IMG/VR virus record: IMGVR_UViG_2541047851_000007 | Strand: one strand, 5' to 3' | DNA: 41,096 nucleotides | From: a virus | Lineage: Duplodnaviria > Heunggongvirae > Uroviricota > Caudoviricetes | In this document: one piece after another, positions 6,374-40,627 of the stretch | Numbering within the stretch: the stretch's first letter is position 1 | Layout: the number at the start of each line of letters is the position of its first letter | Translations under genes and position numbers: made by a program | Notes under the pieces: generated by a model | What the model was told of the DNA's origin: nothing | Seen by the model: the letters and a program-made list of their open reading frames with translations, nothing else | Databases searched by the model: none

Positions 6374-6468
6374 GGATTATTTCTCTTACTAAAGGGATTG
6401 TGATTGTGAACTTTGAACAATATCTCGTCAACCTTAAAGCGCTCATCTCGGAAGATTGACATCAAACT
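6374..6468 (-). promoter_or_regulatory. Candidate promoter of HEPN cassette
   Basis: Minus strand TTGACG - 17 bp - CACAAT, then RBS-like AAGAG before the ATG. Confidence 0.3.
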
Positions 6469-6801
6469 TTAGCGTAACGCCTTTTTACACGGGAAAGATC
6501 CAATGATTTTCGGCGCGTCCATGCTGTTCTGCAGCAGCTGGACGTTCAGGAAAGCTTTTCCGTTACGTTTCACAAACTCAAAGCCGTAATTGTTACCATC
6601 ACGGGAAGGCATCAGGCCCATGTCCATTTTCATGTTTGAATAGTCACCATCTTTTCCCAGAAATTTTATCTTCTGTGATGTGACAGTTTCACCGTTAATA
6701 ACAGTCATTCCGTCACCGGTCATCGTGTAGTTGCCGCACTGAATTGCAGCCATCGCCGGAGCAGTAACCATCATAACTAACGCCAAACATAACCGTTTCA
6801 T
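6469..6801 (-). CDS. Small exported protein (signal peptide), unknown function
   Basis: 110 aa; N-terminal MKRLCLALVMMVTAPAMA-AI signal-peptide-like; two Cys; start overlaps stop of upstream baseplate gene. Confidence 0.5.
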   Translation of the reverse strand: MKRLCLALVMMVTAPAMAAIQCGNYTMTGDGMTVINGETVTSQKIKFLGKDGDYSNMKMDMGLMPSRDGNNYGFEFVKRNGKAFLNVQLLQNSMDAPKIIGSFPCKKALR

Positions 6802-24409: not shown

Positions 24410-24539
24410 AGCTCTGACCTCTACGTTTTGCTACGAAACAACTTTCCGGGAACCTCGTCTGTTTATCCGTGGGCGTGAATAACGCAGTTCCGATTCGTGT
24501 ATTACGCAGCCCAATATGCAAAAAATTACCAGTTCGCGG

Positions 24540-24718
24540 TGTTACCACCTGTTACCACTGTTACCACCATGTTCTTAACCTTTCCCTGAACGACTTATAT
24601 ATATATATGGGGTTGTTAGTAATAAGGTGGTAACAGTGGTAACAGTGGTAACAAACCTTAAATTTCAATACGTTAAAAAGTTACCACCTTACCTTTGCAG
24701 GTGGTAACAGGTGGTTAC
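24540..24718. repeat. Iteron-type replication origin (inverted iteron sets flanking AT-rich tract)
   Basis: Three direct TGTTACCAC(C) repeats (24540-24570), tatatatatatat (24596-24608), three inverted GGTGGTAACA-type repeats (24627-24654), more copies at 24680-24688 and 24700-24718. Confidence 0.65.
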
Positions 24719-26883
24719 GCCCGCCGCCAAACCTTCATTAACTTGCCTTCAACACGTCGTGTTTCACGCTTATATCCGCAATTTTGCAAAACATTGCTAA
24801 TTCGCATTTCTTCGCGTTTTCCGATGCGGTCAGGTTTTAACCCAATCGCATCTCGCAGGACGTCACTAGCACGTAAAAATTCGCAATTTCGCGGAAGTTC
24901 ATTAGTCATCAGGTCGGGCGTGTCGAGCCATTTCTCTACCGTTTCAAGCCAGGCATCCTTGATGGTGTACTGCTCATGGACACTCGCTGCCAGTTGTTCA
25001 GCCTCACGGAACTGGATACCCCCCAGACGCTGAAACACCTCACGAGCCTCAGCCCAAAGTAAAAGGAGATCTCTTTTTATCGCTTTCACGTCGACTTTCG
25101 ACACTTCCACGGGGAGCCAGCGACGGTTACCAGTCTTGTCCGCAAGGAATTCGTCCTCATTGGTGGTACCAACGAACACCAGGCGACGAGGAAACTGGGT
25201 GGCGAACTCCCGGTATTTCGGGATCCAGTTTTCGTGAGTACGCGTCACAAACGCTTTGATTGACTCCAGCTCTTTGGTATTAAGTCCGCGCAGTTCACCA
25301 ATCTCTGCCACCAGCCGACCACGCATTTTTCGAGCGAGATCATCGTCTTTTTCGGCAAAAGAGATTTCAGTAAAAAACGCAGGATCAGGGCTCAGTGCCT
25401 CCACTCCGGAAGACTTACCGCAGCCCTGCGGACCAACGAGGATCGGCACCATATCCGCTTTGATGCCTGGCTCCAGTACTCGCCCCGCCAACGCGGTCCA
25501 CATGTACATAGACACCGCACGGGTATAAGGCGTGTCGGCGGTACCGAAGTGCGTATGGTAGAAACATTCGATGCGCGGCACGCCATCCCACTCCAGTCCG
25601 TTCAGCCAGGTGATCGCTGAATCGAATGGTTGTTCATCGGCTGCAAGTAACACCACATCGCGAATAAGTTCACGGCCAACAGGTTTAAATCCCCGCTTTT
25701 CCATCGTGATGCGCAGGCGCGCATAATCCGCATCGGTGAATGCCCGCCATTGTCCGGATCCTGCCGGGGCAAACATGATTTCGTCGCGGAACTGGTCAAA
25801 GCGAATATCGATGTCCACAAAATCAGGGCGTACTACTGCTTTGGCTGCGTTGCTGATTGTTGCCTCGATACGCCCCCATTTATCACGCTCGAAAGCAGGC
25901 AGCGGTAAAGGTTCCGCCACTTCGGTGCTGGTCAGATCTTCGAAATCGTCGTTGCGGATCCCGATGGCATTCAGGAAATCTCCGTCATCACGATGCGCGC
26001 AACTGGCATGCAGGCATTTAAAATGCCCCTGCTCAAAGCCTGCGGTTCCCGCAGGAAAATAAACTGTGCTTGTTGGATCGCCTCCGCTACTGTGGCCGTC
26101 TTCAAACGGACAGCGGATATATCGTTCACCGTTTGCGCCATCCAGCAGCGTCCAGCCATTGGCATCAAGATATTCAGCTGTATCATCCGTCGCGCCGGGC
26201 GTGAATGCTGAACGGTCGCGCATCTTCGTGTTGCCCGCTTCGGTGGTTACCGACACAGGGAGTTGTTCAGCCAGGCGCTGCCACAGCGTTTCAAGCTGCT
26301 CACCAGTAATAGCCGGAGGTTCATCCGGCAAACCGCCGTCCCATTCAATACGCGCGCCGCTGCTGTGCGTACCGCAGGCAACGAACTGCTGCCCGTTCGC
26401 CAGCAACTCGATAATGCCCATATCCCCCGCCAGGCGATGGATACGCTTACGGAAATCACCATCAACGGCCAGCAGATACAGACACTTATTACTGTTTGCT
26501 CGCCAGCGTCGCGGCGGCGACTCACCCAGAAGTTGCACAAGTGTTTTGCGAATATCTGCCTGAATGTCTTCATCTTCGCTATCGCAGTCCAGCGCCAGCC
26601 AGCCATGGCCTGTACGCACGCAGATCCCATAGTCCGGTTCGTTCGACCAGCGGGCAAAATCATGCTCAGTTACGACGTGCCCAGTCCAGTCGTTAATTCC
26701 GGTAGCCAGACGGTTGCGGTTATACAGGCTCGGCGTTTTGCCAAGCACTTTGAGTTTGCTGTTCGGTGAAATAATCGCGCCCGGATTGCACACGACCGGT
26801 AGCAGCTGGTCCGTACGACCCAGCACCAGGTCGAAGTGGAACCATTCGTCAGGCGTCGCCCCCCACGGTTTGCTATCAGACAT
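24715..26883 (-). CDS. Replication primase-helicase (P4 alpha-like)
   Basis: 722 aa; Cys/His zinc-binding motif, Walker A GPQGCGKSS, downstream FVGTTNEDEF...TGNRRWLPV; adjacent to iterons. Confidence 0.8.
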   Translation of the reverse strand: MSDSKPWGATPDEWFHFDLVLGRTDQLLPVVCNPGAIISPNSKLKVLGKTPSLYNRNRLATGINDWTGHVVTEHDFARWSNEPDYGICVRTGHGWLALDCDSEDEDIQADIRKTLVQLLGESPPRRWRANSNKCLYLLAVDGDFRKRIHRLAGDMGIIELLANGQQFVACGTHSSGARIEWDGGLPDEPPAITGEQLETLWQRLAEQLPVSVTTEAGNTKMRDRSAFTPGATDDTAEYLDANGWTLLDGANGERYIRCPFEDGHSSGGDPTSTVYFPAGTAGFEQGHFKCLHASCAHRDDGDFLNAIGIRNDDFEDLTSTEVAEPLPLPAFERDKWGRIEATISNAAKAVVRPDFVDIDIRFDQFRDEIMFAPAGSGQWRAFTDADYARLRITMEKRGFKPVGRELIRDVVLLAADEQPFDSAITWLNGLEWDGVPRIECFYHTHFGTADTPYTRAVSMYMWTALAGRVLEPGIKADMVPILVGPQGCGKSSGVEALSPDPAFFTEISFAEKDDDLARKMRGRLVAEIGELRGLNTKELESIKAFVTRTHENWIPKYREFATQFPRRLVFVGTTNEDEFLADKTGNRRWLPVEVSKVDVKAIKRDLLLLWAEAREVFQRLGGIQFREAEQLAASVHEQYTIKDAWLETVEKWLDTPDLMTNELPRNCEFLRASDVLRDAIGLKPDRIGKREEMRISNVLQNCGYKRETRRVEGKLMKVWRRA

Positions 26884-26886
26884 GGG

Positions 26887-27126
26887 TTACACCTTTTGCT
26901 GCTCTGAATTTTCGCCGTTTAATAGCCAGTCAGGATCACATTTAAGAACTTTTGCCAATTCAAGAATGAAGCCAGTACGAGTGGCACGACCGGATTCAAG
27001 GTACTGAACAGACTGCTGGCGCATACCAACCCTTTCAGCCAATGAAGTTTGGGTTATGCCTAAGGCTTTGCGGCGCTCCTTTATACGTGAAGCAAGAGTG
27101 GAACCGGACATAAATAACTTCCTCAC
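26887..27126 (-). CDS. Cro-like HTH regulator
   Basis: 79 aa; XRE-type HTH (LGITQTSLAERVGMRQQSVQYLESG); divergent from CI gene; true start may be internal Met 6. Confidence 0.65.
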   Translation of the reverse strand: MRKLFMSGSTLASRIKERRKALGITQTSLAERVGMRQQSVQYLESGRATRTGFILELAKVLKCDPDWLLNGENSEQQKV

Positions 27127-27220: not shown

Positions 27221-27850
27221 ATGAATCTTGCTATCCGGGCCAAAAAGCGCAGAACAGAACTCAATTTAACTCAGGTCGAAGTTGCTAAACGAGCGGGCAT
27301 AAGCCAGCAGTCAATAGAAGCTATAGAGAACGGCAAAACGCTAAAACCACGTAACCTTCTTGCTTTAGCATCGGCTCTGGAGTGTGATCCTAAGTGGTTA
27401 CTACTCGGGGGTGATGTTGTCACGAATTTCAACTACGGAGCCCGAAGGGTGCCTGTTCTAAGCTATGTACAAGCCGGAGCTTTCACAAGCACTGAACAAC
27501 TTCATGAAGGCGGTGATTTCGAATACATCCTGACAACAACGGAATTATCAGAGCGTTCGTTTGCTCTCCGTATACGCGGAGATTCGATGGAGCCAGAATT
27601 TAAAGAGGGTGACATCGTTATAATTGACACTGACGTATACCCTACCCCTGGCGAATTTGTTGCGGCATGCAATGGTAGCCATGAAGCAACGTTCAAAAAG
27701 TACCGCCCGGTAGGGATTGGCGCTAAAGGTGAGGAAGATTTTGAACTTGTTCCCTTAAACAGCGATTACCCTATTTGCCGCTCCTGGGAAAAACCTATCA
27801 AGATTATTGGAACAATGGTGGAGCATCGCATATTCCGCCGAAAAAGATAA
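27221..27850 (+). CDS. CI-like repressor with LexA-like S24 peptidase domain
   Basis: N-terminal HTH (LTQVEVAKRAGISQQSIEAIENG), Ala-Gly site in YVQAGAF, catalytic GDSMEP; start moved to ATG 27221 after AAGGAG RBS. Confidence 0.85.
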   Translation: MNLAIRAKKRRTELNLTQVEVAKRAGISQQSIEAIENGKTLKPRNLLALASALECDPKWLLLGGDVVTNFNYGARRVPVLSYVQAGAFTSTEQLHEGGDFEYILTTTELSERSFALRIRGDSMEPEFKEGDIVIIDTDVYPTPGEFVAACNGSHEATFKKYRPVGIGAKGEEDFELVPLNSDYPICRSWEKPIKIIGTMVEHRIFRRKR

Positions 27851-28810: not shown

Positions 28811-28886
28811 ACTGTAGGGGTGAAGAGATATTAGACGATTTCTCACTGTAGGGGTACAAGGAGAACCACCTCGCCTGATGTGGTTA
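28811..28886. repeat. Direct repeats and inverted repeat upstream of zinc-ribbon gene
   Basis: ACTGTAGGGGT at 28811-28821 and 28845-28855, each preceded by TCTC; inverted repeat AACCAC-N10-GTGGTT at 28865-28886. Confidence 0.5.
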
Positions 28887-28933
28887 AAAGCAGGCACTCG
28901 ATGATATCCATGTAATTGCTGTGTGTAGTCTTT

Positions 28934-28960
28934 GCCCGCCGCAAGTGACGGGCTTTTTTA
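28934..28960 (+). terminator. Possible leader terminator/attenuator before early operon
   Basis: GCCCG-(10 nt)-CGGGC followed by TTTTTT; short stem, long loop. Confidence 0.35.
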
Positions 28961-28998
28961 TGTCTGAAAGCGCACTCGCAACAGCGCGCTCCCCGATA

Positions 28999-29167
28999 TG
29001 AAAAAAGGAATACAACCGATGAAACCTGAACACATCCATCGACTGACGGGGCGCGATGTTCTCCGTTATCGCCGTAAAAACTTCGATTTGATGACCGGTC
29101 TGGCCGTTGCCACTGCGCTCGGTCTGATCATCACTTTCATTCTCCTTGTAGCGAGGACCACAGTATG
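28999..29167 (+). CDS. Small single-pass membrane protein (first ORF of early operon)
   Basis: 56 aa read by eye ([56 protein letters not shown]); AAAGGAA RBS; stop overlaps next ATG. Confidence 0.35.
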
Positions 29168-30067
29168 AGTTTAGAAACCAGTCTAGAACTTAATAATCAA
29201 CTTCTGGCACAACATAATGCGCTGCTTGAACGTCTTATCCGCACAATGGCATCAGGCATTGTTATGCATCCTGACACGATTTCACGAGTGCAGGAATGTC
29301 GGGATACAGCAACTGAAACTGAAAATATGTCAGCGGCAATGACACTGGATGATCTGGAGTTCAGCGACGTTATCGCACTGGCTGGTTTCTACCCGGTAGC
29401 CACCCCTATCACAGAAGACATGCTGCAACGTGCTGTTGCCTACCGTGATGCTGAAGGCGATAAACGAGTTGTTCAGATTGATGCTCTCGACAGCGCATTG
29501 CAGGGCGTCAAACGAGCCAGGGCGCTGCTTAAACCTGCTCTCCTGGACCTGTCCCGTAACATCCTTAAGTTCTGGGACGACCTGCCAACCATCGGCGAGC
29601 GACGTGCTTTTGCCGAGCAGCTACTTGATGCACCTGCAGATGGGCGTGATGAAGTTAAGCCGAAAAAGGCCAGTAACAAAGATGGAGAACGCACGGGGCC
29701 GTTTTACGTCAAAAATGTATCCGGCACAGCAGCCAGTGAACTCCATACCTTACGCAAGTTGAACGAGATGCTTAAAAAAGGCCATATCGAGATCAACCGT
29801 GTTGAGTACCTTCAGCTGCAGGAAGAATTTGCACGCAGAGACGCAGCAAATTCCAGCCAGAATAATGACGCCAAAGATGACCATACAATTGATTTCGCGG
29901 CACTACGCAAACAAGCTGAAGGGTTGATCCTCCAGTTAGCAAAAGGGGGTTACCGGGCAGAAGCTATTGCAATTCTGGAAAAACAGGGAGCCAGGAAACT
30001 TGGTGAAGTAACGGATGAAAATCTCGCTGAAGTAATCACCCTGGCTGAAAAAGCACTGGAGGGTTAA
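29165..30067 (+). CDS. Hypothetical early protein
   Basis: 300 aa; helical, acidic; coupled to following nuclease gene. Confidence 0.5.
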
Positions 30068-30069
30068 TC

Positions 30070-31371
30070 ATGCCAGACGTTCATGCACAACTTTCTCCAT
30101 CATCAGCGCATCGATGGATGCGCTGCCCAGGAAGTCTGGCGCTGGAGGCCACACAACCGGATAAAGAAACAACTTTTGCAATCGAGGGCACTGCAGCGCA
30201 TGCACTTGCCGAAAAGGTGCTGCGCAACCGCCAGAGCCACCCGGAGCACTATGCAGGTTGCAACGTCGCGATGTTCCTTGGATCCTATCCTCTTGCTGAG
30301 CACCCGGATGATACTTCCGGCCCGCAGGTAGATGAGGAAATGGTCGAAGCCGTTGGTCGTTACGTCGACACTGTTTGGGCGCTGGCGCAGGGCAATGAGC
30401 TGCTGGTCGAGCAGCGTGTCGACTTCTCCCATATAACGGGTGTGGAAGAATCTTTCGGAACTGCCGACAGCATAATCATTGCTGGTAGCGAATTACAAAT
30501 CCACGACCTGAAATATGGCAAAGGCGTCCGCATTGATGCAGAACAAAATGAGCAACTACAACTGTATGCTCTGGGTGCGCTCGAACAATTCAGCATGCTG
30601 TATGACTTTGAGACTGTAAGATTATTTATTCACCAGCCGCGGCTTAACCACGTTTCAGAGTGGGCTCTGACGGTGGAAGAGCTCCAGGCGTTCGGTGAAC
30701 GGGCACAGGAGGCCGCAACCAGTGCGATCCTTGTTCTCAATATTGCTGAATGCGAAGGCATTGAGACACTACCGCTGGAAAACTTCATACCTGGAGAAAA
30801 ACAGTGCCGCTTCTGTAAAGCAAAAGCTATTTGCACTGCCCAGAAAATGCAGCATTTACAAACAGCGGCCAGCGACTTTGAAGATCTGACAAAGCCTGTC
30901 AGCGAAATAATCACCAATGCCAGCGCACGTGTACCTCTGTTAACCATTGAGCAGCTTGCGGAGATCTATAGCCAGACCGACTTTATTGAGTCCTGGCTAA
31001 AGGCAGTACGGGACCGGGTTCACAATGAACTCAATGCCGGACATCCGGTACCGGGGTTTAAACTGGTAACAGGAAAACAAGGTAACCGGGCCTGGAGTGA
31101 TGAAGAGGCAGCTCGCGCACTTCTGAAGGACCAGTTCAGGTACAAAACTGAAGAAGTATTCGACTTTAAACTTATTAGTCCCACAAAAGCCGAAAAACTT
31201 ATCAAAAAGGCCAGTCCGCGCCGTTGGTCAAAAGTCGAGGCACTGATAACACGAGCTGATGGTAAACCCACCGTCGTTCCCGAGTCAGACCCACGCCCCG
31301 CACTCAATATCAACCCTGTAAATGATTTCGACGACGTATCCGACGATACGCTAACCGCAGACCTCATCTGA
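30070..31371 (+). CDS. PD-(D/E)xK nuclease, Cas4/RecB-like
   Basis: 433 aa; IHDLKYGKG (D-x-K), QLQLYALG (QxxxY), Cys cluster [10 protein letters not shown]. Confidence 0.65.
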
Positions 31372-31386
31372 TTTAAGGAAATCCCC

Positions 31387-31935
31387 ATGAAACTGAAGCT
31401 GAACAATGTTCGTCTGGCCTTCCCGTCTCTGTTTGAAGCTAAAACTGTAAACGGCGAAGGCGATCCGCGTTTCTCCGCAGTATTTTTAATGTCTCCCAAA
31501 CACCCACAACTGGAAGAAATCCGTAAAGCTATGAAGCAGGTAGCGAAGGAAAAATGGGGGGAGAAGTGGGAGTCCATTTATAACCAGCTGGAGAAAAAAC
31601 TCAATCTGTGCCTGCATGATGGTGATGAAAAAGCAGAGTATGAAGGCTTTCCCGGCAATTTCTTCCTGAACGCTGCTAACAAAGCGCGCCCAGCTGTTCT
31701 TGATCGCGATCGTTCGCCACTAATTCAGGCTGATGGACGTCCCTATGCAGGGTGCTATGTAAACGCCGTTATCGATATCTGGGCACAGGACAATAATTTC
31801 GGTAAACGCATTAATGCCTCACTCGGCGGAGTCCAGTTCCTGCGAGACGGCGATGCATTCGCTGGCGGCGGAGTGGCAAGCGCTGACGATTTCGACGATA
31901 TCAGCGAAGGTGCTGATGCTGAAGCACTAATTTAA
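31387..31935 (+). CDS. Phage ssDNA-binding-like protein
   Basis: 182 aa; between nuclease and polymerase; acidic C-terminal tail (DDFDDISEGADAEALI). Confidence 0.45.
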   Translation: MKLKLNNVRLAFPSLFEAKTVNGEGDPRFSAVFLMSPKHPQLEEIRKAMKQVAKEKWGEKWESIYNQLEKKLNLCLHDGDEKAEYEGFPGNFFLNAANKARPAVLDRDRSPLIQADGRPYAGCYVNAVIDIWAQDNNFGKRINASLGGVQFLRDGDAFAGGGVASADDFDDISEGADAEALI

Positions 31936-31956
31936 AAATATTCATCCCCCAGCTGC

Positions 31957-32625
31957 GTGCTGGGGGATCTCATGAGGGAAAGAATAATGTCACAGCCCGT
32001 ATTAACTAATTACCTTAAAACTCAAATCATCAATAACGCACTTGAGAAAGCGGGTATCCCCAAACGTAAATCAGCACTACGAGCTGCTCGTGTTGAATGG
32101 GCCGAACGTGTTCGGCTTGCAGCTATCGGGGGCGTAGAGAAAGAAGCTGAAATATTAAAAAATATAAAAAAAATAGAAACACTGGTATCAAAATTCCCCG
32201 AAGCATTAAAAACCGCCAATAACATTATCAGGGAAGAGTGTTACATGTGTCTGAATCTGGCAGGTTCTCGGGTTACCGTCTATTTCAACGGTAACTACCG
32301 AGGATATGAATCAGGGTCACCAGACCATATTCACAAAATCGCGCCGGGGGAATTTACCCTTCTGGCAAATGACCCTCTAGTTACAGAGTTTTACGGGTTT
32401 GATACACTTTATGAGCAGATACAGAGCGATGAGTCAGACATTCGACAGAATGTCAGCGCTGCACTCAGTAAAGTGCGCACAGTTAAGCGCCTGCTGGAAG
32501 AGTGGCCTGAAGCTAAAGAACTTCTGCCAGCCGATGCACCATCTGCTCCGCTTCCGCCAGCTATACGACGCGAAACTCTCAACGAAATGATCGGCCTCCC
32601 TTCTGACGAAGGGGTAGATGCTTAA
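31957..32625 (+). CDS. Hypothetical early protein (likely start at 31987)
   Basis: 222 aa ORF; internal Met with RBS GAGGGAAAG. Confidence 0.45.
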   Translation: MLGDLMRERIMSQPVLTNYLKTQIINNALEKAGIPKRKSALRAARVEWAERVRLAAIGGVEKEAEILKNIKKIETLVSKFPEALKTANNIIREECYMCLNLAGSRVTVYFNGNYRGYESGSPDHIHKIAPGEFTLLANDPLVTEFYGFDTLYEQIQSDESDIRQNVSAALSKVRTVKRLLEEWPEAKELLPADAPSAPLPPAIRRETLNEMIGLPSDEGVDA

Positions 32626-32692
32626 TATTTCTTATAACAAAGGCTGGCTTAAGAAAATAGTTATCCAAACCAGCCTACCGCAATACTAAAAA

Positions 32693-32962
32693 TTAAAATT
32701 CATTGAATTTAAAAAGACATTTCCCTATTGGATTGCCATAGTCTCTACATACCGAAATGCTGTCCCATACAGGCTGAGCCAAACACCCAAGAAAGAACCC
32801 AATAAGCGCAAAAATTATAATTTTGGGAAGAACACGATCCTTAGGACCTTCTTCACGTTCGAGCCATGCGCCACCAGCCCGAACTATTCTCCCTAAAATA
32901 TAAAGAATGGGGAAAGCAATAATACCTATCAATGAAAGTATTCCGATACCAAAGCTAAACAC
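32693..32962 (-). CDS. Small two-helix membrane protein, opposite-strand moron
   Basis: 89 aa; two hydrophobic helices; GTG start with GGAG RBS; very AT-rich; antisense to flanking operon. Confidence 0.45.
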   Translation of the reverse strand: MFSFGIGILSLIGIIAFPILYILGRIVRAGGAWLEREEGPKDRVLPKIIIFALIGFFLGCLAQPVWDSISVCRDYGNPIGKCLFKFNEF

Positions 32963-33018
32963 CGCCGTCTCCTTGTTTATTTACACCTACATAACCATAT
33001 ATCACACAAGGTTATTTT

Positions 33019-35082
33019 ATGTCCAATATACTATGGGGTGACCTAGAAACCTATTGCGAAATCCCTATTACGAACGGTACCCATGCGTATGCCGAAGGCG
33101 TTGAAGTGATGCTGTTCGCATGGGCTATCAACGACGAGCCCGTAAACGTGTGGGATATCACTGCCGGTGGTGGTATTCCACACGGCTTATACGAAGCAAT
33201 CGCAGCCCCTGAAACCCTGCTTTATTTTCATAACTCTCACTTCGACCGCACCGTCCTGCGTTATGCAATGCCGCGCCTGGCACCGCCAGTCGAACGTTGG
33301 CGCGACACAATGGTGCAGGCGCTGGCGCACGGTCTCCCGGGGTCTCTGGGGGAACTCTGCGAAGTACTAGGCGTCCCGCAAGACAAAGCGAAGGACAAAG
33401 AAGGTAAAGCGCTGATCCAGCTGTTCTGTAAGCCACGCCCGAAAAACAGCAAACTGCGCCGGGCCACCAGCAAAACCCACCCGGAAGAATGGCGGCGCTT
33501 TGTTGCTTACGCCGGACTGGATATCGAGGCAATGCGCGAAGTCTATAAACGTCTGCCGAAGTGGAATTATCAGGGGACAGAACTGGCGCTCTGGCATCGT
33601 GATCAGCAGATCAACGACCGGGGCGTCTGCATGGACATTCAACTCGCGCGCGCTGCGATCGAAGCGGTAGACCAGGAGCAAAAGCGCCTGGCAAAGCGTA
33701 CACAGGAAATGACTGATGGCGAAGTGCAGGCAGCAACACAACGGGACGCGTTGATTAAGCACATCGTTGAATCCTACGGTGTGGAGCTACCAGACATGCA
33801 ACGCAGTACTCTGGAACGTCGTATAGCCGACCCCGATTTACCATCTGCCGTGAAAGAACTGCTGGCTATCCGCCTGCAGGCCAGTACTACCAGCACCAGT
33901 AAATACAAGGCACTGATGAAAGGCGTAAGCCACGACGGGCGCTTACGCGGTACGCTACAGTTCTGCGGGGCGTCACGTACCGGTCGTTGGGCCGGACGGC
34001 TATTCCAGCCCCAGAACCTTCCCCGCCCTTCACTAAAACAGGAACAAATAGACGAAGGCATCGAAGCACTGAAAGCCGGATGTGCAGACCTGCTGTTTGA
34101 CAATATCATGGAACTAACCAGTTCAGCGTTACGTGGCTGCATTATCGCGCCAACAGGCAAAAAACTGGTGGTAAGTGACTTGTCGAACATTGAAGGCCGT
34201 ATGCTGGCATGGCTGGCGGGAGAAGAATGGAAACTGAATGCATTCAGAGAGTACGACGCCGGAACGGGTCCGGACTTATATAAACTGGCGTATGCAAAAG
34301 CTTTCGATATTGCACCAGATGATGTTGATAAACACATGCGTCAGATCGGTAAAGTCATGGAACTCGGTCTGGGTTATGGAGGTGGTGTATCGGCTTTCAT
34401 CACTTTTGCTCTGGTTTACGGTCTCGATCTCGACGAGCTGGCGAACGCCGCACTGCCAAACATTCCCCGCGATGTTATCCGCGAGGCGAAAAGCTGGTAC
34501 AACGAATCGGTTAAACGTAAGTCGACCTTTGGCCTGTCCGAGCGTGTATTCATCGCATGTGACTCGCTCAAGCGCCTGTGGCGCAGGGCGCACCCGGCGA
34601 CCTGCGATTTCTGGTACGAACTGGAGCGCACCGTCCGCACTGCAATCGCCACACCGCAAAAAACATTGTATTGCGGTTATCTTAAAATCCGCCGCGATGG
34701 CGCGTGGCTGCGCATACAGCTACCATCCGGACGCGCTGTATGCTACCCCTCTCCGGTTATCGAAAAAGGGAATATCACCTATATGGGTGTTAACTCTTAT
34801 TCGCGTAAATGGCAACGACTCAAAACCTACGGCGGAAAGCTGGTAGAGAACGTCACCCAGGCGGCCGCCCGCGACGTTCTGGCCGGAAACATGCCGCTTA
34901 TCGAAGATGCCGGTTACAGCATTGTGCTGACGGTACACGACGAGGTGATCACCGAAGCACCTGACACAGAAGATTTCAACGATAAAGCGCTTTCCGCGCT
35001 TCTCTCCACTAACCCCGAATGGGCGCCCGATATCCCACTGAACGCTGGCGGTTTTGAGGCGTACCACTACCGTAAGGATTAA
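33019..35082 (+). CDS. Family A DNA polymerase with 3'-5' exonuclease domain
   Basis: 687 aa; exo motif DLET; motif [14 protein letters not shown]; motif [17 protein letters not shown]; motif C LTVHDEV. Confidence 0.85.
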
Positions 35083-35087
35083 TCGCT

Positions 35088-35291
35088 ATGACTGTAATCA
35101 AAACGCATACCGGAACGGTTATTACCCGCACCGGTGAAAAGCAGGTGCAATTGCATCAAAACGCGACAACGTGGGTGGCTGGCCCAAAAGAGTATTACTA
35201 CAAAGACACTGGCCGCCGCGGTGGTGCTGTCGGTGTCCGCACTCGTCTGGTGCTGAGCAGCATCCGCCCAATCGAAGCAAAGCAGGAGTAA
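35088..35291 (+). CDS. Small hypothetical protein
   Basis: 67 aa; coupled ORF after polymerase. Confidence 0.35.
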   Translation: MTVIKTHTGTVITRTGEKQVQLHQNATTWVAGPKEYYYKDTGRRGGAVGVRTRLVLSSIRPIEAKQE

Positions 35292-35296
35292 CCCCT

Positions 35297-35518
35297 ATGT
35301 CATTTAAATATCGGGACAGTCCGCTTTATTACCGGGCTGCGAGGGAGGCCTTGCGCCTTGAGCAGTCCGGCGAATATGACCGGGCAGCGAAGGTCTGGGC
35401 CAAGGCTAACCGCCAGTCACGTAACGAACTGAATCAGGACTGGAGCGAACGCCGGTCTGATTTTTGTCTGATGCAGAACATGCGCGAAAAGCGTAAGGCG
35501 GTGAGCGATGACTTGTGA
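35297..35518 (+). CDS. Small basic protein, possible regulator
   Basis: 73 aa from ATG 35297 with AGGAG RBS (ORF track extends upstream without RBS). Confidence 0.4.
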   Translation: MSFKYRDSPLYYRAAREALRLEQSGEYDRAAKVWAKANRQSRNELNQDWSERRSDFCLMQNMREKRKAVSDDL

Positions 35519-35990
35519 GCAGACCATTCTTGACATGTGCTGCGGCTCTCGTATGTTTTGGTTCGACAAGGAGGACAAGCGCGCCGTGTTCAGTGATATC
35601 CGCGCCGAGCAGCATGAGCTTTGCGACGGTCGCCAGTTGGTTATAAGTCCGGACCTTATAGCTGATTTCCGCGCCCTTCCCTTTGCCGATAACACTTTCC
35701 CTGTCGTCGTTTTCGATCCGCCGCACCTCGAGCGCGTCGGCGATAACGCATGGATGAGGAAAAAGTACGGGCGGCTCAACAAAGAAACATGGCGCGATGA
35801 TCTTCGCGACGGCTTCGCCGAAGCATTCAGGGTATTGCGGCCCCACGGTGTACTCATATTCAAATGGAACGAAACGCAGATCCCGGTAAGCAATATCTTG
35901 GCGCTGACCGACGAGAAGCCGGCCATATGGCAACGAACCGGAAAAGCCGACAAAACCCACTGGGTTATTTTCGTCAAAGGTGTGGAATGA
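35508..35990 (+). CDS. Small SAM-dependent DNA methyltransferase (amino-MTase type)
   Basis: 160 aa; motif I LDMCCGS; motif IV VVFDPPH (DPP[YFH] class). Confidence 0.5.
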   Translation: MTCEQTILDMCCGSRMFWFDKEDKRAVFSDIRAEQHELCDGRQLVISPDLIADFRALPFADNTFPVVVFDPPHLERVGDNAWMRKKYGRLNKETWRDDLRDGFAEAFRVLRPHGVLIFKWNETQIPVSNILALTDEKPAIWQRTGKADKTHWVIFVKGVE

Positions 35991-36283
35991 TGGCCTACGA
36001 ACGTGAAAGCCTTATCGAAAAGCACCTCGTCGCCGAAGTGAAAAAGGCTGGCGGGGTCGCCTTTAAGTTCGTGTCACCCGGTCGCCGCTCGGTACCGGAT
36101 CGCATTGTCCTGCTACCCGGCGGTCGCATCGTCTTTGTCGAATGCAAAGCGCCAAGCAAACCACCACGGCCTGACCAGTTACGCGAGCACGAACGGCTGC
36201 GCGCGTTGGGCTTTACCGTGGTGGTATTAGATAGCAAAAATCTGGAGGGGATATTGTGCGGGGAGCCTATTACAACGAAATAG
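35987..36283 (+). CDS. VRR-NUC domain nuclease
   Basis: About 98 aa from ATG overlapping upstream stop; PDRIVLL...IVFVECK (D...E-x-K). Confidence 0.6.
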   Translation: MMAYERESLIEKHLVAEVKKAGGVAFKFVSPGRRSVPDRIVLLPGGRIVFVECKAPSKPPRPDQLREHERLRALGFTVVVLDSKNLEGILCGEPITTK

Positions 36284-37284
36284 ACCCTAACGCAGCACAA
36301 TGGCTGCGTAACCTTATTGCTGCAGGTCATATCGCCCCGGGTGAAGTTGATGAAAGGAGTATCGAAGATGTCGCACCAGACGACTTGCGCGGATTCACAC
36401 AGTGCCATTTCTTCGCCGGGATCGGCGTCTGGTCTTATGCTCTGCGTCTGGCCGGATGGCCGGATAACAAACCGGTCTGGACAGGAAGTTGCCCGTGCCA
36501 GCCTTTCAGCTCGGCTGGTAAAGGCGCTGGGTTTGATGACGAGCGGCACCTATGGCCAGCACTATTCCACCTCATCAGCGAGCGACGCCCTAAGCTGGTA
36601 TTTGGCGAACAGGTTGCGGGAGTCAATGCCTGGTTCGATCTTGTACAAACTGACGTGGAAGCAGTGGACTACGCCTTTGGGCTTGTCCCGTTTCCGGCTG
36701 CGGGCGTCGGTGCCCCGCATATCCGAGATAGAGCGTATTGGGTGGCCGACGCCAGCGGCGAGCGATCACAGCGGTGGCGAAAGCGCCTCAATAGCATTGA
36801 GGAAGATGTCTGGAGATCGTCGACCGTCCGGCAACACGCTACACAGCTCCCTGCGGAATTTTGCTCACCTAGCGGGGTGGTACACCCCAACCTGCAACAC
36901 AAACCCACAGCCGGAGACAAAACGCGGTCTAGAAACCTTAGCGGGACTATCCAGATTAGCGGGATGGCCGACAGTGACGACGATCGACAACAACCAAGTT
37001 CGTGCCGAGGGCGCAGCGGCCAATCATACCGAACGGGGAACGACCCTCGGCGGCGCTGCGAGAATCTGCGGCCCAATACGATTAACGGCTGCTGGGATGG
37101 TGCTGACTGGCTCCTCTGCCGGGATGGTCGCTGGCGGCCAGTTGAATCCGGCACATGCCCGTTGGCTAATGGGATTACCTCCAGAGTGGGACGACTGCGC
37201 GCCTACGGCAACGCGATAGTCGCACCAGCTGCCGCAACATTCATCCGCTCGTTTATGGAATGCGCAGGATACGACCTTATTTAA
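36256..37284 (+). CDS. DNA cytosine-5 methyltransferase
   Basis: 342 aa; motif I FFAGIGV; motif IV PCQPFS; motif X RAYGNAIV; GTG start. Confidence 0.8.
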
Positions 37285-37601
37285 TGCCACTCACATCTGG
37301 CATGATACCGTCCAGAAGGTAATTGCTTATATACAACGGAGCCGCCCATGGCATAAGTATAAGCATGAAGTTTTGTCCAGAAGTCCCCATAAACTAGTAT
37401 TGGGGCTAAAAATTTTGGATCGCTAACCATAGATGTAGCAGGAAGCTCGAAACCTTTAGAAAGAATGTTTACCAGTGAAGGGTAATTTTCAAAATCAGTG
37501 CTATTCCCGCCCACCTCTAAAGCATCCAGTTCAAAGTCGAGCACTCCACCATTTTTGTAATACTCCGGAACAGTTAACCCTGATGTTAACAAAGTAGCCA
37601 T
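37281..37601 (-). CDS. Hypothetical protein, opposite-strand AT-rich moron
   Basis: 106 aa; AGGAGG RBS; AT-rich relative to flanking GC-rich genes. Confidence 0.5.
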   Translation of the reverse strand: MATLLTSGLTVPEYYKNGGVLDFELDALEVGGNSTDFENYPSLVNILSKGFELPATSMVSDPKFLAPILVYGDFWTKLHAYTYAMGGSVVYKQLPSGRYHARCEWH

Positions 37602-37635
37602 TAAACAATCCTCCTGAATTTTAAAGGGTTACATT

Positions 37636-39030
37636 ATGCCCAAAGTTTTCACGCCTCGCCCCTACCAAGATCTAATTATCAACCACGAAATCGACATTCA
37701 CCGCTGCAACATCTGGGCAGGGATGGGGATGGGTAAAACCGTAGCGACACTCACCACGCTGGAAGATCTTTTCATGGCGGGCTCAGAGACACAGCCCGCG
37801 CTGGTCCTCGCGCCCCTACGCGTTGCAGCAAGCACATGGCCGGATGAAGCGCTGAAATGGGGGCATCTGCGCAATATCGAGGTGCAGCCGATTGTTGGTA
37901 ACGCCAAAGCACGCTCTGCAGCGCTGGCGAACAGCAACGCGAGCGTGTTCACCATCAACTACGATAACCTTGTCTGGCTGGTTGAGGAATTGGGAGAACG
38001 ATGGCCGTTCGGTACTGTCATTCCAGATGAAAGCACCCGGCTAAAATCCTTCCGGCTGCGAGGTGGTGGTAAGCGCGCGGCGGCGCTGGGCAAAGTGGCG
38101 CATAAGTATGTCCAGCGCTGGATAAATCTCACCGGTACGCCAGCACCGAACGGCCTGGTAGATTTGTGGGGACAATTGTGGTTTGTGGACCAGGGGCAAC
38201 GTCTCGGGCGCACTTACGGCGCGTTTACCTCACGCTGGTTCAACTCGATACAGTTTCCGGGGCAGAGCTGGACCAAACTGGAGCCGTTTGCTCACTCACA
38301 TGCTGAAATACAGCGAGCGTTAGCCGATGTGACCCTCTCGCTGGATGCGGCCGACTGGTTCGATATCAAAGACCCCATCCATAACGTAATCCGCGTGGAT
38401 ATGCCGCCGAAGGCCCGTCAGCAGTATCGTGAAATGGAAAAGGAAATGTTCCTCGAGCTGAACGGCGAAGGCATCGAAGCACCAAACGCCGCGGCAAAGA
38501 CACTGAAGTGTCTGCAAATCGCCAGTGGCGCAGTATACACAGACGACACCGGAAGTTGGTCAGAACTGCATGACACCAAACTACAAGCGCTGGACAGCAT
38601 ACTGACCGAAGCAGCTGGCGCACCTGTGCTGGTTGCTTATCACTGGAAACACGATCTTGAACGCTTGCTTAAAGCATTCCCTCGCGGTCGTCACCTCGAC
38701 CAAGATCCACAGACACTGCGCGACTGGAATTCCGGAAAGATTCCTGTTCTCTTTGCACACCCAGCCAGCGCGGGCCACGGTCTGAACATGCAGGACGGCG
38801 GAAACATACTGGTATTTTTCTCACACTGGTGGGACCTGGAGCAGTATCAGCAAATTATTGAACGTATCGGCCCCACCAGGCAGATACAGGCCGGACACAA
38901 TCGTCCGGTATTTATTCACCACATTATTGCGGCCGACACTATGGACGAAATGGTGATGGAGCGGCGCAACTCAAAACGAACAGTGCAGGACATCCTGCTC
39001 GATGCCATGAAAAAGAGAGGTATAGCATGA
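37636..39030 (+). CDS. SNF2-family helicase
   Basis: 464 aa; Walker A AGMGMGKTV; DExx box IPDESTRLK; C-terminal helicase region. Confidence 0.75.
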   Translation: MPKVFTPRPYQDLIINHEIDIHRCNIWAGMGMGKTVATLTTLEDLFMAGSETQPALVLAPLRVAASTWPDEALKWGHLRNIEVQPIVGNAKARSAALANSNASVFTINYDNLVWLVEELGERWPFGTVIPDESTRLKSFRLRGGGKRAAALGKVAHKYVQRWINLTGTPAPNGLVDLWGQLWFVDQGQRLGRTYGAFTSRWFNSIQFPGQSWTKLEPFAHSHAEIQRALADVTLSLDAADWFDIKDPIHNVIRVDMPPKARQQYREMEKEMFLELNGEGIEAPNAAAKTLKCLQIASGAVYTDDTGSWSELHDTKLQALDSILTEAAGAPVLVAYHWKHDLERLLKAFPRGRHLDQDPQTLRDWNSGKIPVLFAHPASAGHGLNMQDGGNILVFFSHWWDLEQYQQIIERIGPTRQIQAGHNRPVFIHHIIAADTMDEMVMERRNSKRTVQDILLDAMKKRGIA

Positions 39031-39227
39031 GCGAGAAACCCGACGATTTACTCACCCCAGATGAAGTATGCCAAAAGTTAGGTATTACACAGAAAACGCT
39101 ATGTGAGTGGAATATTAAGCATCGTCATCGGGCTATCCTGGCACCAATTCGTTTCAGTGCAAAAGTAGTTCGTTATGAGCGCCGAAATGTCGACGCTTTT
39201 ATTCAAAAGTGTCGCAGCCAGTATTAA
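39027..39227 (+). CDS. Excisionase / AlpA-like DNA-binding protein
   Basis: 66 aa; HTH (LTPDEVCQKLGITQKTL); overlaps integrase 3' end. Confidence 0.6.
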   Translation: MSEKPDDLLTPDEVCQKLGITQKTLCEWNIKHRHRAILAPIRFSAKVVRYERRNVDAFIQKCRSQY

Positions 39228-40627
39228 CCTCGCCGCCGTAGCAATGCAACCTGCGCAAGTATGCTCCGCTCGTGAGCCTCGAAAGCTTCGCGCTTTAACG
39301 CAATCTCTTCCTGTAAAATCTCATCAGAAAAGTCGTAATGTTCTGCCATCGGGTCATCTGACTTGCTGGAGTGGTGAAGGCAAAGGAGGCTGATTTCCCT
39401 TCGGTCTGATCGGGAATAGCCTCTTTCCTTCATCAAGGCAATAACATTGCTCTTAAGGAATTTACGGCACATCGTATTAAATGCACCGTCTTTCCCTTTA
39501 ACAGTCCCATCATGTTTTATTCCTTTTACAGCCCCGTCCGGGCTGTATGTTTTCACCAGCTTATCCAGTGATCGTTTTGAAAATGGCTGCATTGGATCAC
39601 GTGGCTGCAAAAATACATAATCCCTGTTGCACTCAGGAACTGAATCACGCCAGGCTTTCTGCTCGTCGATAATCCGCCGGATCTCAGGCGTTATCGGCAG
39701 GCGGAAAGCCTTTTGTGTTTTCATAGCCCCTCGCATGCCGATAACCCCTTCCGGATAAACAATTTCACCAGCCTCCTCGTGAACGTAGTCCCAGCGCAGG
39801 TTATGGACATTAATCGGACGAACGCCAGTGATGATCATGAAGCGAACAGCATTCTTCTGGTGTACAGAGGTGCAGGCAGCAACATTGAGCCAGAGTCGGG
39901 CGATTGATTCAATATCGGTAAAAAGCCGTGTGGGGGTAGGTTTCTGTATGCGGGAGGAAACATAATCATCTGGCAGACTGGCGGCAACATTGCGGCCGTT
40001 GCAAAGAGTAGGTGCGCAGAACTTCCAGAACCGACGGAGCTCGGCAAACAACTCCAGGGCGTTATTGTTCGAGCGAGTGGCGATCCACTCGTCCAGCACT
40101 TCCACCAGCCGATTGTATGTTACGTCGCTGAACACCTCACGCTCGCCGAACGTTGCTTTAATCCGGTCGATACGCACCCCGTAGGTTGTGAAACTGTCCG
40201 GGCTCAGCTTCTGCCGGGCGACTTTGGCTTTGAGGTCATCCCGGTACATTTCCAGCGCTGCATGTACTGACTCTGCCCGCAAGCCACAGTCAGCCATACC
40301 TAGCGCTTTTTCGCGCGCCAGCTGGATAGCGAGCTCCGGCCACTCGCCGAGCTTTTTACCCTTGAGGCCCATCTTTTTTGGAAACTCGGCGTAAAATGTA
40401 ACCTTACCGGCTTTGCTGAAATCGATACGGAGATAGTTCTCTTTTTCGTATTTGGAACGGCGAGCCACGCCGGAAGCAGCGAGGATGATTTTGGCAGCAG
40501 CAACACAGATTTTCATGTGTGCGCTGGTATAGGGGGGTTTACAGGCGTCCCATTTTTCAGATGCGGCTAAAACATCGTCATTATTGGGGCTATCCGGATT
40601 ATGTGTTACAGTGCGCGGCATTCTCAA
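39224..40627 (-). CDS. int: Tyrosine integrase (start possibly internal, near 40516)
   Basis: 467 aa ORF; catalytic-domain features (TGVRPINV, LHH, AEHYDF); adjacent to xis at prophage end. Confidence 0.85.
   Translation of the reverse strand: MRMPRTVTHNPDSPNNDDVLAASEKWDACKPPYTSAHMKICVAAAKIILAASGVARRSKYEKENYLRIDFSKAGKVTFYAEFPKKMGLKGKKLGEWPELAIQLAREKALGMADCGLRAESVHAALEMYRDDLKAKVARQKLSPDSFTTYGVRIDRIKATFGEREVFSDVTYNRLVEVLDEWIATRSNNNALELFAELRRFWKFCAPTLCNGRNVAASLPDDYVSSRIQKPTPTRLFTDIESIARLWLNVAACTSVHQKNAVRFMIITGVRPINVHNLRWDYVHEEAGEIVYPEGVIGMRGAMKTQKAFRLPITPEIRRIIDEQKAWRDSVPECNRDYVFLQPRDPMQPFSKRSLDKLVKTYSPDGAVKGIKHDGTVKGKDGAFNTMCRKFLKSNVIALMKERGYSRSDRREISLLCLHHSSKSDDPMAEHYDFSDEILQEEIALKREAFEAHERSILAQVALLRRRG

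Follow-up and report, generated by a model that had tools for sequence, protein, structure and literature searches.

A prophage early region that probably carries a standard duf2800-gp2.5-polA replication and recombination cassette in Escherichia coli

The 41,096-nucleotide stretch of viral DNA analyzed here (the window; IMG/VR record IMGVR_UViG_2541047851_000007) includes, at positions 30070–39030, what is most probably the early part of an inducible E. coli prophage carrying the standard "duf2800-gp2.5-polA" replication/recombination cassette. This cassette is widespread in temperate and virulent phages and is an ordinary, already known arrangement. A sequence-only reading of the region had listed a Cas4/RecB-like nuclease, an SSB-like protein, a family A polymerase with its three motifs, a VRR-NUC nuclease and an SNF2 helicase, and all five identifications were borne out by database matches. 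The core genes, with the conserved gene that precedes them, are:

29165..30067, plus strand: conserved 300-aa protein directly upstream of the DUF2800 nuclease (phrog_6784, 1.5e-179)
30070..31371, plus strand: DUF2800 PD-(D/E)XK nuclease, Cas4/RecB-like (Pfam DUF2800, 1.2e-109; PDDEXK_1, 8.8e-11)
31387..31935, plus strand: ssDNA-binding/annealing protein of the T7 gp2.5/Enc34 ORF6 type (Enc34_ssDNA-bd, 2.4e-44; PDB 5odj, 4jg2)
33019..35082, plus strand: family A DNA polymerase with 3'-5' exonuclease domain, PolA (phrog_17, 2.5e-125; weak Pfam match, 5e-14)
35990..36283, plus strand: VRR-NUC nuclease with PD...ExK residues (phrog_93, 3.6e-31; PDB 4qbo, 1.4e-13, and 4qbn, 1.6e-11)
37636..39030, plus strand: SNF2-family ATPase/helicase (phrog_62, 1.4e-158)

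The catalytic residues of these proteins are intact. In the DUF2800 nuclease, D133, D146, K148, Q162 and Y166 are invariant among seven homologues, as are C19, C246, C249 and C255, which form a Cas4/AddB-type Cys4 pattern. Six divergent homologues of the polymerase share the residues of Exo I (D8/E10), Exo III (Y164/D168), motif A (D387/E392), motif B (R441/K445/L449/G452) and motif C (H640-D641-E642). L449 aligns opposite the Phe of a PDB Pol I, so that motif B has Leu where Klenow has F762; the protein is distant from solved PolA structures, the best PDB match (3e-6) covering about 130 residues. The VRR-NUC protein is homologous to dimeric viral and bacterial VRR-NUC proteins, and the SNF2 protein retains the invariant motifs Walker A GxGKT, DES, TP, HGLN and Q/R. 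For the 300-aa protein no match was found in Pfam or PDB; APSE-1 and about 19 IMG/VR loci carry a homologue immediately ahead of DUF2800. No SSB family other than gp2.5/Enc34 was matched among the early-region ORFs scanned, all of which lie beyond position 22632. The SSB ends in an acidic tail (...DDFDDISEGADAEALI), and the C-terminal tail of the DUF2800 nuclease is also acidic. This tail is common to the two proteins and co-varies between them, which may be a new observation.

Possible inactivation of the polymerase and helicase genes was checked, and none was found to be inactivated. None of the core ORFs is truncated, their active-site residues are invariant, and dN/dS of the five core genes and the gene for the 300-aa protein, all six in the early operon, was 0.04–0.2 when the alleles of E. 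coli O103:H2 12009 and IAI1 served as reference, a sign of purifying selection. The polymerase gene was found in 159 of 5426 complete E. coli genomes, in every one of which (159/159) it is full length, and in 1726 phage records. Because the element is a chromosomal prophage, and because its ANR cargo gene is frameshifted in one relative (IAI1), the module might be taken for a decaying, no longer functional remnant of a cryptic prophage. Set against the intact genes and the selection acting on them, and against the late genes, lysis genes and Q present within the window, this reading is extremely improbable. Near-identical modules (96% identity) are moreover carried by isolated phages recovered as virions, vB_EcoM-606R2 among them.

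The primase-helicase and its origin lie in the divergent cro operon, as follows:

27221..27850, plus strand: CI-like repressor (HTH and S24 peptidase), divergent from cro (Peptidase_S24, 2.9e-18; HTH_3, 1.1e-14)
26887..27126, minus strand: Cro-like HTH regulator that opens the primase-helicase operon (HTH_3, 2.7e-14)
24715..26883, minus strand: primase-helicase, 722 aa (Pfam VapE-like, 2.3e-60; PDB 7pds, 7e-34; phrog_256, phrog_1156)
24528..24721, no strand assigned: iteron origin, within which:
24540–24567, minus strand: three GTGGTAACA copies
24589–24614: AT-rich (TA)n spacer
24627–24653, plus strand: three GTGGTAACA copies
24680–24688, minus strand: one GGTGGTAAC
24701–24709, plus strand: one further GTGGTAACA copy, just before the primase-helicase stop codon

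The start of CI follows the RefSeq call in a relative, where it is annotated as a LexA family protein; the longest ORF begins with TTG at 27170. Control of the polymerase operon by cI would be putative, the two regulatory regions having only a 9-mer in common. The primase-helicase starts 4 nt after cro and is the sole gene between cro and Q. It consists of an N-terminal AEP Prim-Pol domain (2.1e-9 when residues 1–442 were scanned alone), a Cys/His cluster and a VapE-like SF3 helicase with the Walker A sequence GPQGCGKS; a DUF5906 match (5.5e-5) is under the family cutoff. The seven exact GTGGTAACA copies are confined to a 170-bp stretch (24540–24709), with 0.21 expected by chance, in agreement with the iteron origin that the sequence-only reading had placed with this gene. 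In BH100N and phage 606R2, too, the allelic primase-helicase genes are followed by an inverted array around TATATA, built of different iteron sequences. In these two other alleles the architecture is kept, and the iterons change in sequence along with the C-terminus or the helicase part of the protein.

The same reading had called the primase-helicase P4-alpha-like, which stands as an analogy. As in P4 alpha, primase and SF3-helicase parts reside in a single polypeptide, and the gene is flanked directly on its 3' side by short iterons of either orientation (in P4, crr at 4291–4590 beside alpha at 4636–6969). Homology was not supported: there is no detectable sequence similarity (BLASTP E 0.69), and alpha matches Zn-ribbon (Zn_Ribbon_Prim), Toprim (Toprim_3), D5_N and Pox_D5, whereas the protein here matches Prim-Pol and VapE-like. 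The helicase superfamily is common to both while the Pfam families differ, and an alpha-type Zn-ribbon plus Toprim primase is ruled out by the Prim-Pol (AEP) match. The P4 record lists neither a polymerase nor an SSB gene. A T7 gp4-type Toprim-SF4 primase-helicase is likewise ruled out by the AEP and SF3 domains. Lambda-type O/P replication, with an O initiator containing the origin and a P helicase loader, is ruled out by the content of the cro-Q interval.

The overall layout resembles lambda: cI and cro diverge, the cro operon includes the replication initiator and has the origin close by, the opposite early operon carries recombination functions and ends in xis/int, and a Q antiterminator comes before lysis. 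It differs in lacking O/P and Red/Gam homologues and in encoding a primase-helicase, a polymerase and an SSB of its own, whereas lambda relies on host replication proteins. This combination had been described as an unusual mix for a lambda-like backbone, a view that did not survive comparison with relatives, because the identical early layout (primase <- cro / cI -> DUF2800, gp2.5, PolA, VRR-NUC, SNF2, xis, int) is found in Bordetella BPP-1, Hamiltonella APSE-1 and Yersinia YeP4, the polymerase recurs in E. coli genomes as counted above, and the module has been described in the literature. In these three phages the same six proteins occur in the same order and orientation, cro-primase is divergent from cI, and xis/int close the other end. 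The polymerase shares 74% identity with that of YeP4, 68% with that of BPP-1 and 61–64% with those of APSE. Within the cassette, only the cargo differs here (Nmad5, SAM methyltransferase, Dcm, ANR and small minus-strand ORFs), as does the joined late-gene set relative to BPP-1 and APSE. Those two are podophages, whereas related isolates of the present element bear vB_EcoM, a prefix used for myoviruses. An AEP-primase/SF3-helicase occupies the homologous position in BPP-1, YeP4, SPN19 and EK99P-1.

Gene order within the cassette is rigid. DUF2800, gp2.5-like SSB, PolA, VRR-NUC and SNF2 are colinear in 57/57 IMG/VR loci, these being the loci that hold all five genes. DUF2800, with the DUF2815/gp2.5-like SSB gene directly after it, lies upstream of PolA in 54 of the 56 IMG/VR loci with enough upstream sequence, and VRR-NUC and SNF2 lie downstream on the same strand in 55/56. 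The synteny extends to Enc34 and virulent Chi-like phages, Dhillonvirus, Jerseyvirus, and Staphylococcus and Streptococcus prophages, whose polymerases belong to the Leu762 PolA class, and the Leu of motif B3 is invariant among the homologues compared. The name "duf2800-gp2.5-polA module" comes from earlier work, which noted no separate canonical ssb gene nearby (PMC8093625). Leu762 PolA has been tied to temperate phages and to RecB-like and SNF2-like neighbours, and its enzymes were described as slower and more accurate (PMC6302109); Leu at B3 is found in the SPO2-like and KPP25-like PolA clusters (PMC10201439). For Enc34, a replication module has been described, and its ORF6 has SSB activity (PMC5686142).

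Together with an origin of their own, these genes make up a coherent phage-encoded replication and recombination set. How it may work is suggested by analogy to T7, to P4 and to homologues of solved structure. Upon inactivation of cI, the cro operon would produce the AEP-primase/SF3-helicase, which would bind the inverted 9-bp iterons, open the AT-rich spacer, unwind the DNA and prime it. The leftward-type early operon would supply a proofreading Leu762-class polymerase and the gp2.5-type SSB, together a minimal replisome. By analogy only, the Cas4/RecB-like nuclease and the SSB/annealase may act as an exonuclease/annealase pair in recombination-dependent replication and concatemer formation, and the SNF2 ATPase may remodel or branch-migrate forks and junctions; VRR-NUC would resolve junctions ahead of packaging. 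The likeness to T7 (gp5, gp4, gp2.5, gp6, gp3) lies in the proofreading family A polymerase, the gp2.5-fold SSB with its acidic C-terminal tail, the fused primase-helicase, the exonuclease and the junction-resolving nuclease of a minimal phage-encoded replisome. There are differences as well. T7 gp4 is Toprim plus SF4, whereas the primase-helicase here is AEP plus SF3; the nuclease is Cas4/RecB-like with a Cys4 pattern rather than gp6-like; the resolvase is a VRR-NUC protein rather than endonuclease I; motif B3 has Leu where T7 has Tyr; and an SNF2 ATPase is extra.

Were the set to operate in this way, initiation and fork progression would proceed without DnaA, DnaB, DnaC, DnaG, Pol III and host SSB, and the host would still provide ligase, topoisomerases, primer removal and the dNTP supply. 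Genes for ligase, topoisomerase, a sliding clamp or nucleotide synthesis were not seen in the early region, nor was a processivity factor identified. By analogy with T7, fork progression independent of the host is plausible, and the "largely host-independent replication" of the sequence-only reading can reasonably be inferred from gene content; literature on the phage and its close relatives yielded no experiment showing PolA to be the replicative polymerase or the phage to replicate independently of host replication proteins. The plus-strand operon could instead be mainly a recombination/repair set, a functional counterpart of lambda Red at the PL position, with PolA filling gaps and bulk synthesis left, as in P4, to host Pol III recruited to forks that the primase-helicase has opened and primed. 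P4 replication does use host Pol III, and the iterons 3' of the primase-helicase gene resemble P4 crr. The operon also occupies the position of lambda exo/bet/gam, its DUF2800 nuclease, gp2.5-type annealase and VRR-NUC resolvase would make a complete recombination set (PMC8093625), and the Leu762 class is reported to be slower and more accurate (PMC6302109). We nevertheless consider this unlikely, since the polymerase is inseparable from the cassette in all the colinear loci, retains the complete set of proofreading and polymerase motifs, is under strong purifying selection, and is carried by virulent Chi-like, Dhillon- and Jersey-type phages with no other polymerase gene in the record stretches inspected. 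The replication components also match the T7 set one-to-one.

The sequence-only list for 30070–39030 had omitted Nmad5, two methyltransferases, the ANR regulator, two small plus-strand ORFs and two minus-strand ORFs. The proposed replication machine would not include Nmad5, the methyltransferases, ANR or the small ORFs between core genes, which would be exchangeable cargo. These features and the end of the operon are:

31944..31968, minus strand: strong GC hairpin with T-run (fold z-score -4.3), probably terminating leftward cargo-slot transcription
31987..32625, plus strand: Nmad5-family protein, cargo slot 1 (Pfam Nmad5, 3.6e-56)
32693..32962, minus strand: small 89-aa cargo ORF with two hydrophobic segments (RefSeq hypothetical protein)
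35088..35291, plus strand: 67-aa protein, cargo slot 2 (phrog_1226)
35297..35518, plus strand: ANR-family small regulator, cargo slot 2 (NCBIfam ANR_neg_reg, 1.8e-20, over the curated cutoff)
35508..35990, plus strand: SAM-dependent DNA methyltransferase-like protein, cargo slot 2 (phrog_954, 2.2e-85; weak Pfam methyltransferase matches)
36256..37284, plus strand: C5 cytosine DNA methyltransferase, cargo slot 3 (Pfam DNA_methylase, 1.5e-12; phrog_363, 3.1e-90)
37281..37601, minus strand: 106-aa ORF, cargo slot 3 (phrog_28127, 1.7e-59)
39027..39227, plus strand: excisionase-like HTH_17 protein, last in the operon
39224..40627, minus strand: tyrosine integrase

The SNF2 gene, the nucleases and the two methyltransferases could also be read as a prophage-borne defence or anti-defence island of the DISARM, Dpd or Zorya kind. 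The methyltransferases and nucleases adjoin the SNF2 gene, TIR-domain genes occur in the slots of relatives, and in PADLOC the SNF2 protein partially matched DpdE, ZorD and DrmD (best 2e-12). These matches, however, are confined to the generic SNF2 ATPase core, the matched proteins being two to three times as long, and NCBIfam scores are far under the curated cutoffs. Relatives keep all five core genes without the methyltransferases, and the core genes always accompany PolA and SSB in phage genomes, making such an island very unlikely. The start of Nmad5 is the one that RefSeq gives for BH100N, whose sequence is identical, the longest ORF beginning with GTG at 31957, and its slot holds an unrelated minus-strand gene in IAI1, O103:H2 12009 and 606R2. 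Profile searches gave no family match for the 89-aa ORF, and a DPPH motif is present in the translation of the SAM-dependent methyltransferase-like protein. In sequenced E. coli relatives, the prophage end adjoins yfhL.

The genes that the sequence-only reading had named were all found to be real, each being identified by a family or structure match in the window. Five of them make up the core of the early operon, and a primase-helicase lies in the cro operon, divergent from cI:

24715-26883, minus strand: primase-helicase of 722 aa, starting 4 nt past cro; VapE-like SF3 (2.3e-60), PDB 7pds (7e-34)
30070-31371, plus strand: nuclease; DUF2800 (1.2e-109), PDDEXK_1
31387-31935, plus strand: SSB; Enc34 ssDNA-binding family (2.4e-44), with matches to the solved Enc34 ORF6 and DUF2815 structures
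33019-35082, plus strand: PolA polymerase; phrog_17 (2.5e-125)
35990-36283, plus strand: VRR-NUC nuclease; PDB 4qbo (1.4e-13) and 4qbn (1.6e-11), PD and ExK residues present
37636-39030, plus strand: SNF2 protein with a complete set of ATPase motifs

The N-terminus of the primase-helicase, when scanned alone, additionally matched the AEP Prim-Pol family (2.1e-9). The nuclease was aligned with six homologues (from BPP-1, APSE-1, YeP4, a Staphylococcus phage, a Dhillonvirus and a Chi-like phage), and residues C19, C246, C249 and C255 were found to be invariant and to be spaced as C...CxxCx5C, as in iron-sulfur nucleases of the Cas4/AddB type. Because D133, D146, K148, Q162 and Y166 are invariant as well, the label Cas4/RecB-like is accurate. 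The chains matched by the VRR-NUC protein are deposited under the plain name "Nuclease"; we take them to be phage and bacterial VRR-NUC proteins that act as dimeric Holliday-junction resolvases. A crystal structure together with gel-shift data has established Enc34 ORF6, the relative of the SSB, as an SSB with the T7 gp2.5 fold (PMC5686142). The polymerase is weakly detected by Pfam (5e-14) and PDB sequences (3e-6), and the catalytic residues of its exonuclease and polymerase parts are all unchanged among homologues of 32-75% identity. Between motifs B and C it has a segment of ∼55 residues (about 468-525; 34420-34590) that is also found in proteobacterial relatives and is absent from the Staphylococcus and Chi-like homologues in the alignment. 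None of the core proteins had an NCBIfam match at equivalog level. When inactivated polymerase or helicase genes were looked for, none was found disrupted. The objection that the module might be dead fails because the genes are undisrupted, dN/dS is low (0.04-0.2 for the five core genes and a 300-aa protein encoded just upstream, relative to the O103:H2 12009 and IAI1 prophage alleles), and the polymerase has at least 80% coverage in all 159 genomes having it, with 100% for most among the matches listed.

The gene combination had been regarded as an unusual mix, but it is already known and is not unusual. Relatives of the polymerase were detected in 1726 of 50,697 phage records. The nearest outside E. 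coli are from Yersinia YeP4-6 (74%), Bordetella BPP-1 (68%) and the APSE phages (61-64%), with further close relatives in Acinetobacter 4316, BcepC6B and Xfas53. BPP-1, APSE-1 and YeP4 share the early-region plan of the window, including a cro-primase unit transcribed divergently from a cI-type repressor gene, with xis/int past SNF2, and the core is retained in the virulent phages SPN19 (Chi-like) and EK99P-1 (a Dhillonvirus) and in Staphylococcus phage StauST398-2. Synteny was followed in a sample of 80 IMG/VR loci retrieved by polymerase profile. DUF2800 and gp2.5 genes were found upstream of the polymerase in 54 of the 56 loci with enough upstream sequence, VRR-NUC and SNF2 genes downstream in 55 of the 56 with enough downstream sequence, and the five core genes were colinear on one strand in every locus having all five (57/57). 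A "duf2800-gp2.5-polA module" has been described in phages with Gram-positive hosts and in phages with Gram-negative hosts (PMC8093625), and in Enc34 a primase, a polymerase, a VRR-NUC protein and a helicase make up the replication module (PMC5686142). PolA enzymes with Leu762 constitute a temperate-phage class with RecB-like (70%) and SNF2-like (55%) neighbours (PMC6302109), and Leu at motif B3 is a hallmark of the SPO2-like and KPP25-like PolA clusters (PMC10201439). The window polymerase has this class-defining Leu (L449), which is invariant in the family alignment. Little is new here: the cassette is in the literature, the same names are used in RefSeq, and its frequency is ∼3% both among complete E. 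coli genomes and among deposited phage genomes.

Directly 3′ of the primase-helicase gene, GTGGTAACA occurs in 7 exact copies inside 170 bp, compared with 0.21 expected in the whole window. Three copies lie on one strand and three on the other, separated by a (TA)n AT-rich spacer, with more copies extending up to the stop codon. The proposal of a self-contained replication and recombination module is borne out, with all components intact and an origin of its own. Three primase-helicase alleles were found to go with three iteron sequences: GTGGTAACA in the window (24528-24721), TGTACCAACCT-type repeats in the BH100N prophage (L001, 2079-2263) and AGGTGACGG in the isolated phage vB_EcoM-606R2 (606R2; L002, 1303-1567). 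The latter two form inverted arrays on either side of a TATATA core, which is placed as in the window. The BH100N protein is 97% identical to that of the window and differs mainly in the first ∼65 and last ∼15 aligned residues. In the 606R2 protein the primase domain is retained (62% identity) next to an unrelated helicase/C-terminal part. Both alleles support the view that the primase-helicase and the adjoining iterons are a cognate protein-origin pair, in which the protein would bind the repeats. The BH100N differences also point to a C-terminal iteron-recognition element. The comparison of this gene to P4 alpha proved apt as an analogy because the crr iterons of P4, too, are located just 3′ of the alpha gene. 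As a statement of descent it did not hold: P4 alpha is composed of Zn-ribbon, Toprim, D5_N and Pox_D5 domains, in contrast to the Prim-Pol and VapE-like domains of the window protein, and homology was rejected on the different domains and the lack of significant similarity. By analogy, then, the primase-helicase would work like P4 alpha, but it is not a member of the P4 alpha family.

The gene set appears to map one-to-one onto the replication and recombination genes of T7. The primase-helicase would be equivalent to gp4, PolA to gp5 and the SSB to gp2.5; the nuclease together with this SSB, as an annealing protein, would fill the gp6/gp2.5 recombination role, VRR-NUC would be the counterpart of the gp3 resolvase, and SNF2 may be an extra fork or junction remodeller beyond the T7 set. 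Origin-specific initiation would be provided by the primase-helicase and iterons, as in P4. On this analogy, fork progression could be independent of DnaA, DnaB, DnaC, DnaG, Pol III and host SSB. The suggestion of largely host-independent replication can apply to the fork at most, because the early region showed no gene for a ligase, topoisomerase, clamp or flap nuclease and none for nucleotide metabolism. The main alternative is that the operon is a Red-like recombination unit, with bulk synthesis carried out by host Pol III. We consider this unlikely, since the polymerase is strictly linked to the cassette, virulent phages included, and is under strong selection. The phage-encoded replisome is preferred. 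In practical terms, the cassette offers a clean E. coli case, open to genetic work, of a replisome that many gut, marine and pathogen-associated phages use. With its defined iteron origin and cI/cro switch, it could serve as a model for testing host independence and for finding out what the SNF2 and Cas4-like proteins do.

The nuclease and SSB were found to share near-identical acidic-hydrophobic C-terminal tails (31324-31371 and 31888-31935), reading ...DFDDVS..ADLI in the nuclease and ...DFDDIS..EALI in the SSB (SSB tail DDFDDISEGADAEALI). The two tails co-vary from phage to phage, both in individual comparison loci (L003, L005, L006 and L008) and in 55 IMG/VR loci. For example, both proteins terminate in DLV in BPP-1 and in AESLI in YeP4; in StauST398-2 the nuclease ends in ...DDFDEL, and DDFDEL is also present in the SSB tail, ten residues before its end. 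In SPN19, the nuclease, SSB, primase and SNF2 ATPase all terminate in W(D/E)(D/E)E(V/E). Among 55 non-redundant IMG/VR nuclease/SSB pairs, last-four-residue similarity within a locus was 3.33 versus 0.37 ± 0.57 for shuffled pairings (0/5000 shuffles reached the observed value), a test that is inflated by the relatedness of the loci. About a third of the lineages have no nuclease/SSB tail match. Control pairings in which the nuclease tail was matched to those of SNF2 or PolA gave no signal, and pairings with VRR-NUC tails were marginally above shuffled ones (240/5000). The simplest reading of the co-varying tails would be a shared docking peptide. The tails of T7 gp2.5 and gp4 dock on gp5, and by analogy we tentatively suggest, at somewhat less than even confidence, that the tail is a handle by which the nuclease, SSB and sometimes both helicases are brought to one replisome site, most likely the polymerase. 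If true, the T7 gp2.5/gp4 tail-gp5 interaction would extend to a very large phage group, and the nuclease would be a replisome-coupled component. Discussion of tails in the Enc34 SSB paper is limited to the SSB's own tail (PMC5686142).

The gene list given previously for 30070-39030 was correct in the genes it named, but seven further ORFs inside this stretch had been overlooked:

inside 30070-39030: Nmad5-family gene (3.6e-56)
inside 30070-39030, minus strand: 89-aa ORF with two hydrophobic segments
inside 30070-39030: 67-aa ORF
35297-35518, inside the replication operon: small protein of the ANR (AraC negative regulator) family (NCBIfam 1.8e-20, above the curated cutoff)
inside 30070-39030: SAM methyltransferase (DPPH motif) from a family of phage DNA methyltransferases
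inside 30070-39030: C5 cytosine methyltransferase (Dcm)
inside 30070-39030, minus strand: 106-aa ORF

Three fixed slots are located between core genes, at 31936-33018 (SSB-PolA), 35083-35989 (PolA-VRR-NUC) and 36256-37635 (VRR-NUC-SNF2). The proposed comparison of module content with related prophages was run, and in IAI1, O103:H2 12009 and 606R2 the core is kept at 96-99% identity and the slots hold other genes, among them one for a TIR-domain protein, DUF4406 and further ORFs on the minus strand (L002, L009 and L010). O103:H2 12009, for instance, has the ANR gene, and IAI1 has a frameshifted copy. Over the E. coli relatives, slot contents comprise Nmad5, the hydrophobic small ORF, TIR, ANR, DUF4406, the SAM methyltransferase, Dcm and minus-strand ORFs, and this distribution indicates that the interspersed genes are exchangeable cargo. 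A defence-island reading was rejected: PADLOC had no match on nine accessory/unknown ORFs, and its hits for the SNF2 helicase were confined to the generic SNF2 core. A 10-bp GC-rich hairpin lies between the SSB and Nmad5 genes (31944-31968; fold z-score -3.7 on the plus and -4.3 on the minus strand). It has a T-run on the minus strand only and probably terminates leftward transcripts out of the cargo slot. A DUF2800 protein has been reported to trigger retron IX (bioRxiv 10.64898/2026.07.14.737667), and Nmad5 mutants escape Tmn (PMC11846954), making both proteins relevant to defence-system sensing.

Prophages in the chromosomes of E. coli BH100N, BH100, Ecol_542 and F11 match the stretch 29000-39400 with 100% identity, and the stretch was matched in 170 of 5426 complete E. 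coli genomes, in every case on the chromosome. The element adjoins yfhL at the same site in BH100N, O103:H2 12009 and IAI1. Three isolated phages, vB_EcoM-606R2, -611R5 and -689R2, cover 64% of the stretch at 96% identity. Outside it, the window has Q, holin and lysozyme genes and further long minus-strand ORFs, which are taken as putative late genes. The window is a complete-looking temperate phage. No RNA families or tRNAs were found in the whole window using Rfam (gathering threshold) and ARAGORN. Between cI and the polymerase operon lies a minus-strand ORF of 189 aa (28225-28794; phrog_1244) that encodes an N-terminal coiled coil and a CxxC...CxxC motif; it had no PADLOC or Pfam match and is missing from BH100N. 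The opposite-strand position between cI and the early operon is where lambdoid prophages keep lysogen-expressed genes.

The 300-aa protein (29165-30067) is encoded immediately before the nuclease in APSE-1, as P53, and in some 19 related loci. Its wide conservation is limited to a C-terminal helical segment of roughly 55 aa, and a ∼45-aa segment (TGPFYVKN...VEYLQLQEE) is differently placed in two homologues. No match was obtained in Pfam, PADLOC or NCBIfam, or with a 12-sequence profile against PDB. We make no claim of antitermination because a terminator-like hairpin ahead of the first gene (28915-28970) does not surpass shuffled sequences in folding (z -0.89). A search for cI operators common to the cI/cro region and the stretch preceding the polymerase operon gave only one 9-mer, CAGGCACTC (at 27157 in the cI/cro intergenic region and at 28891), and one 7-mer. 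Two copies of ACTGTAGGGGT, a further candidate operator sequence, lie in that preceding stretch with a spacing of 34 bp (28811-28855).
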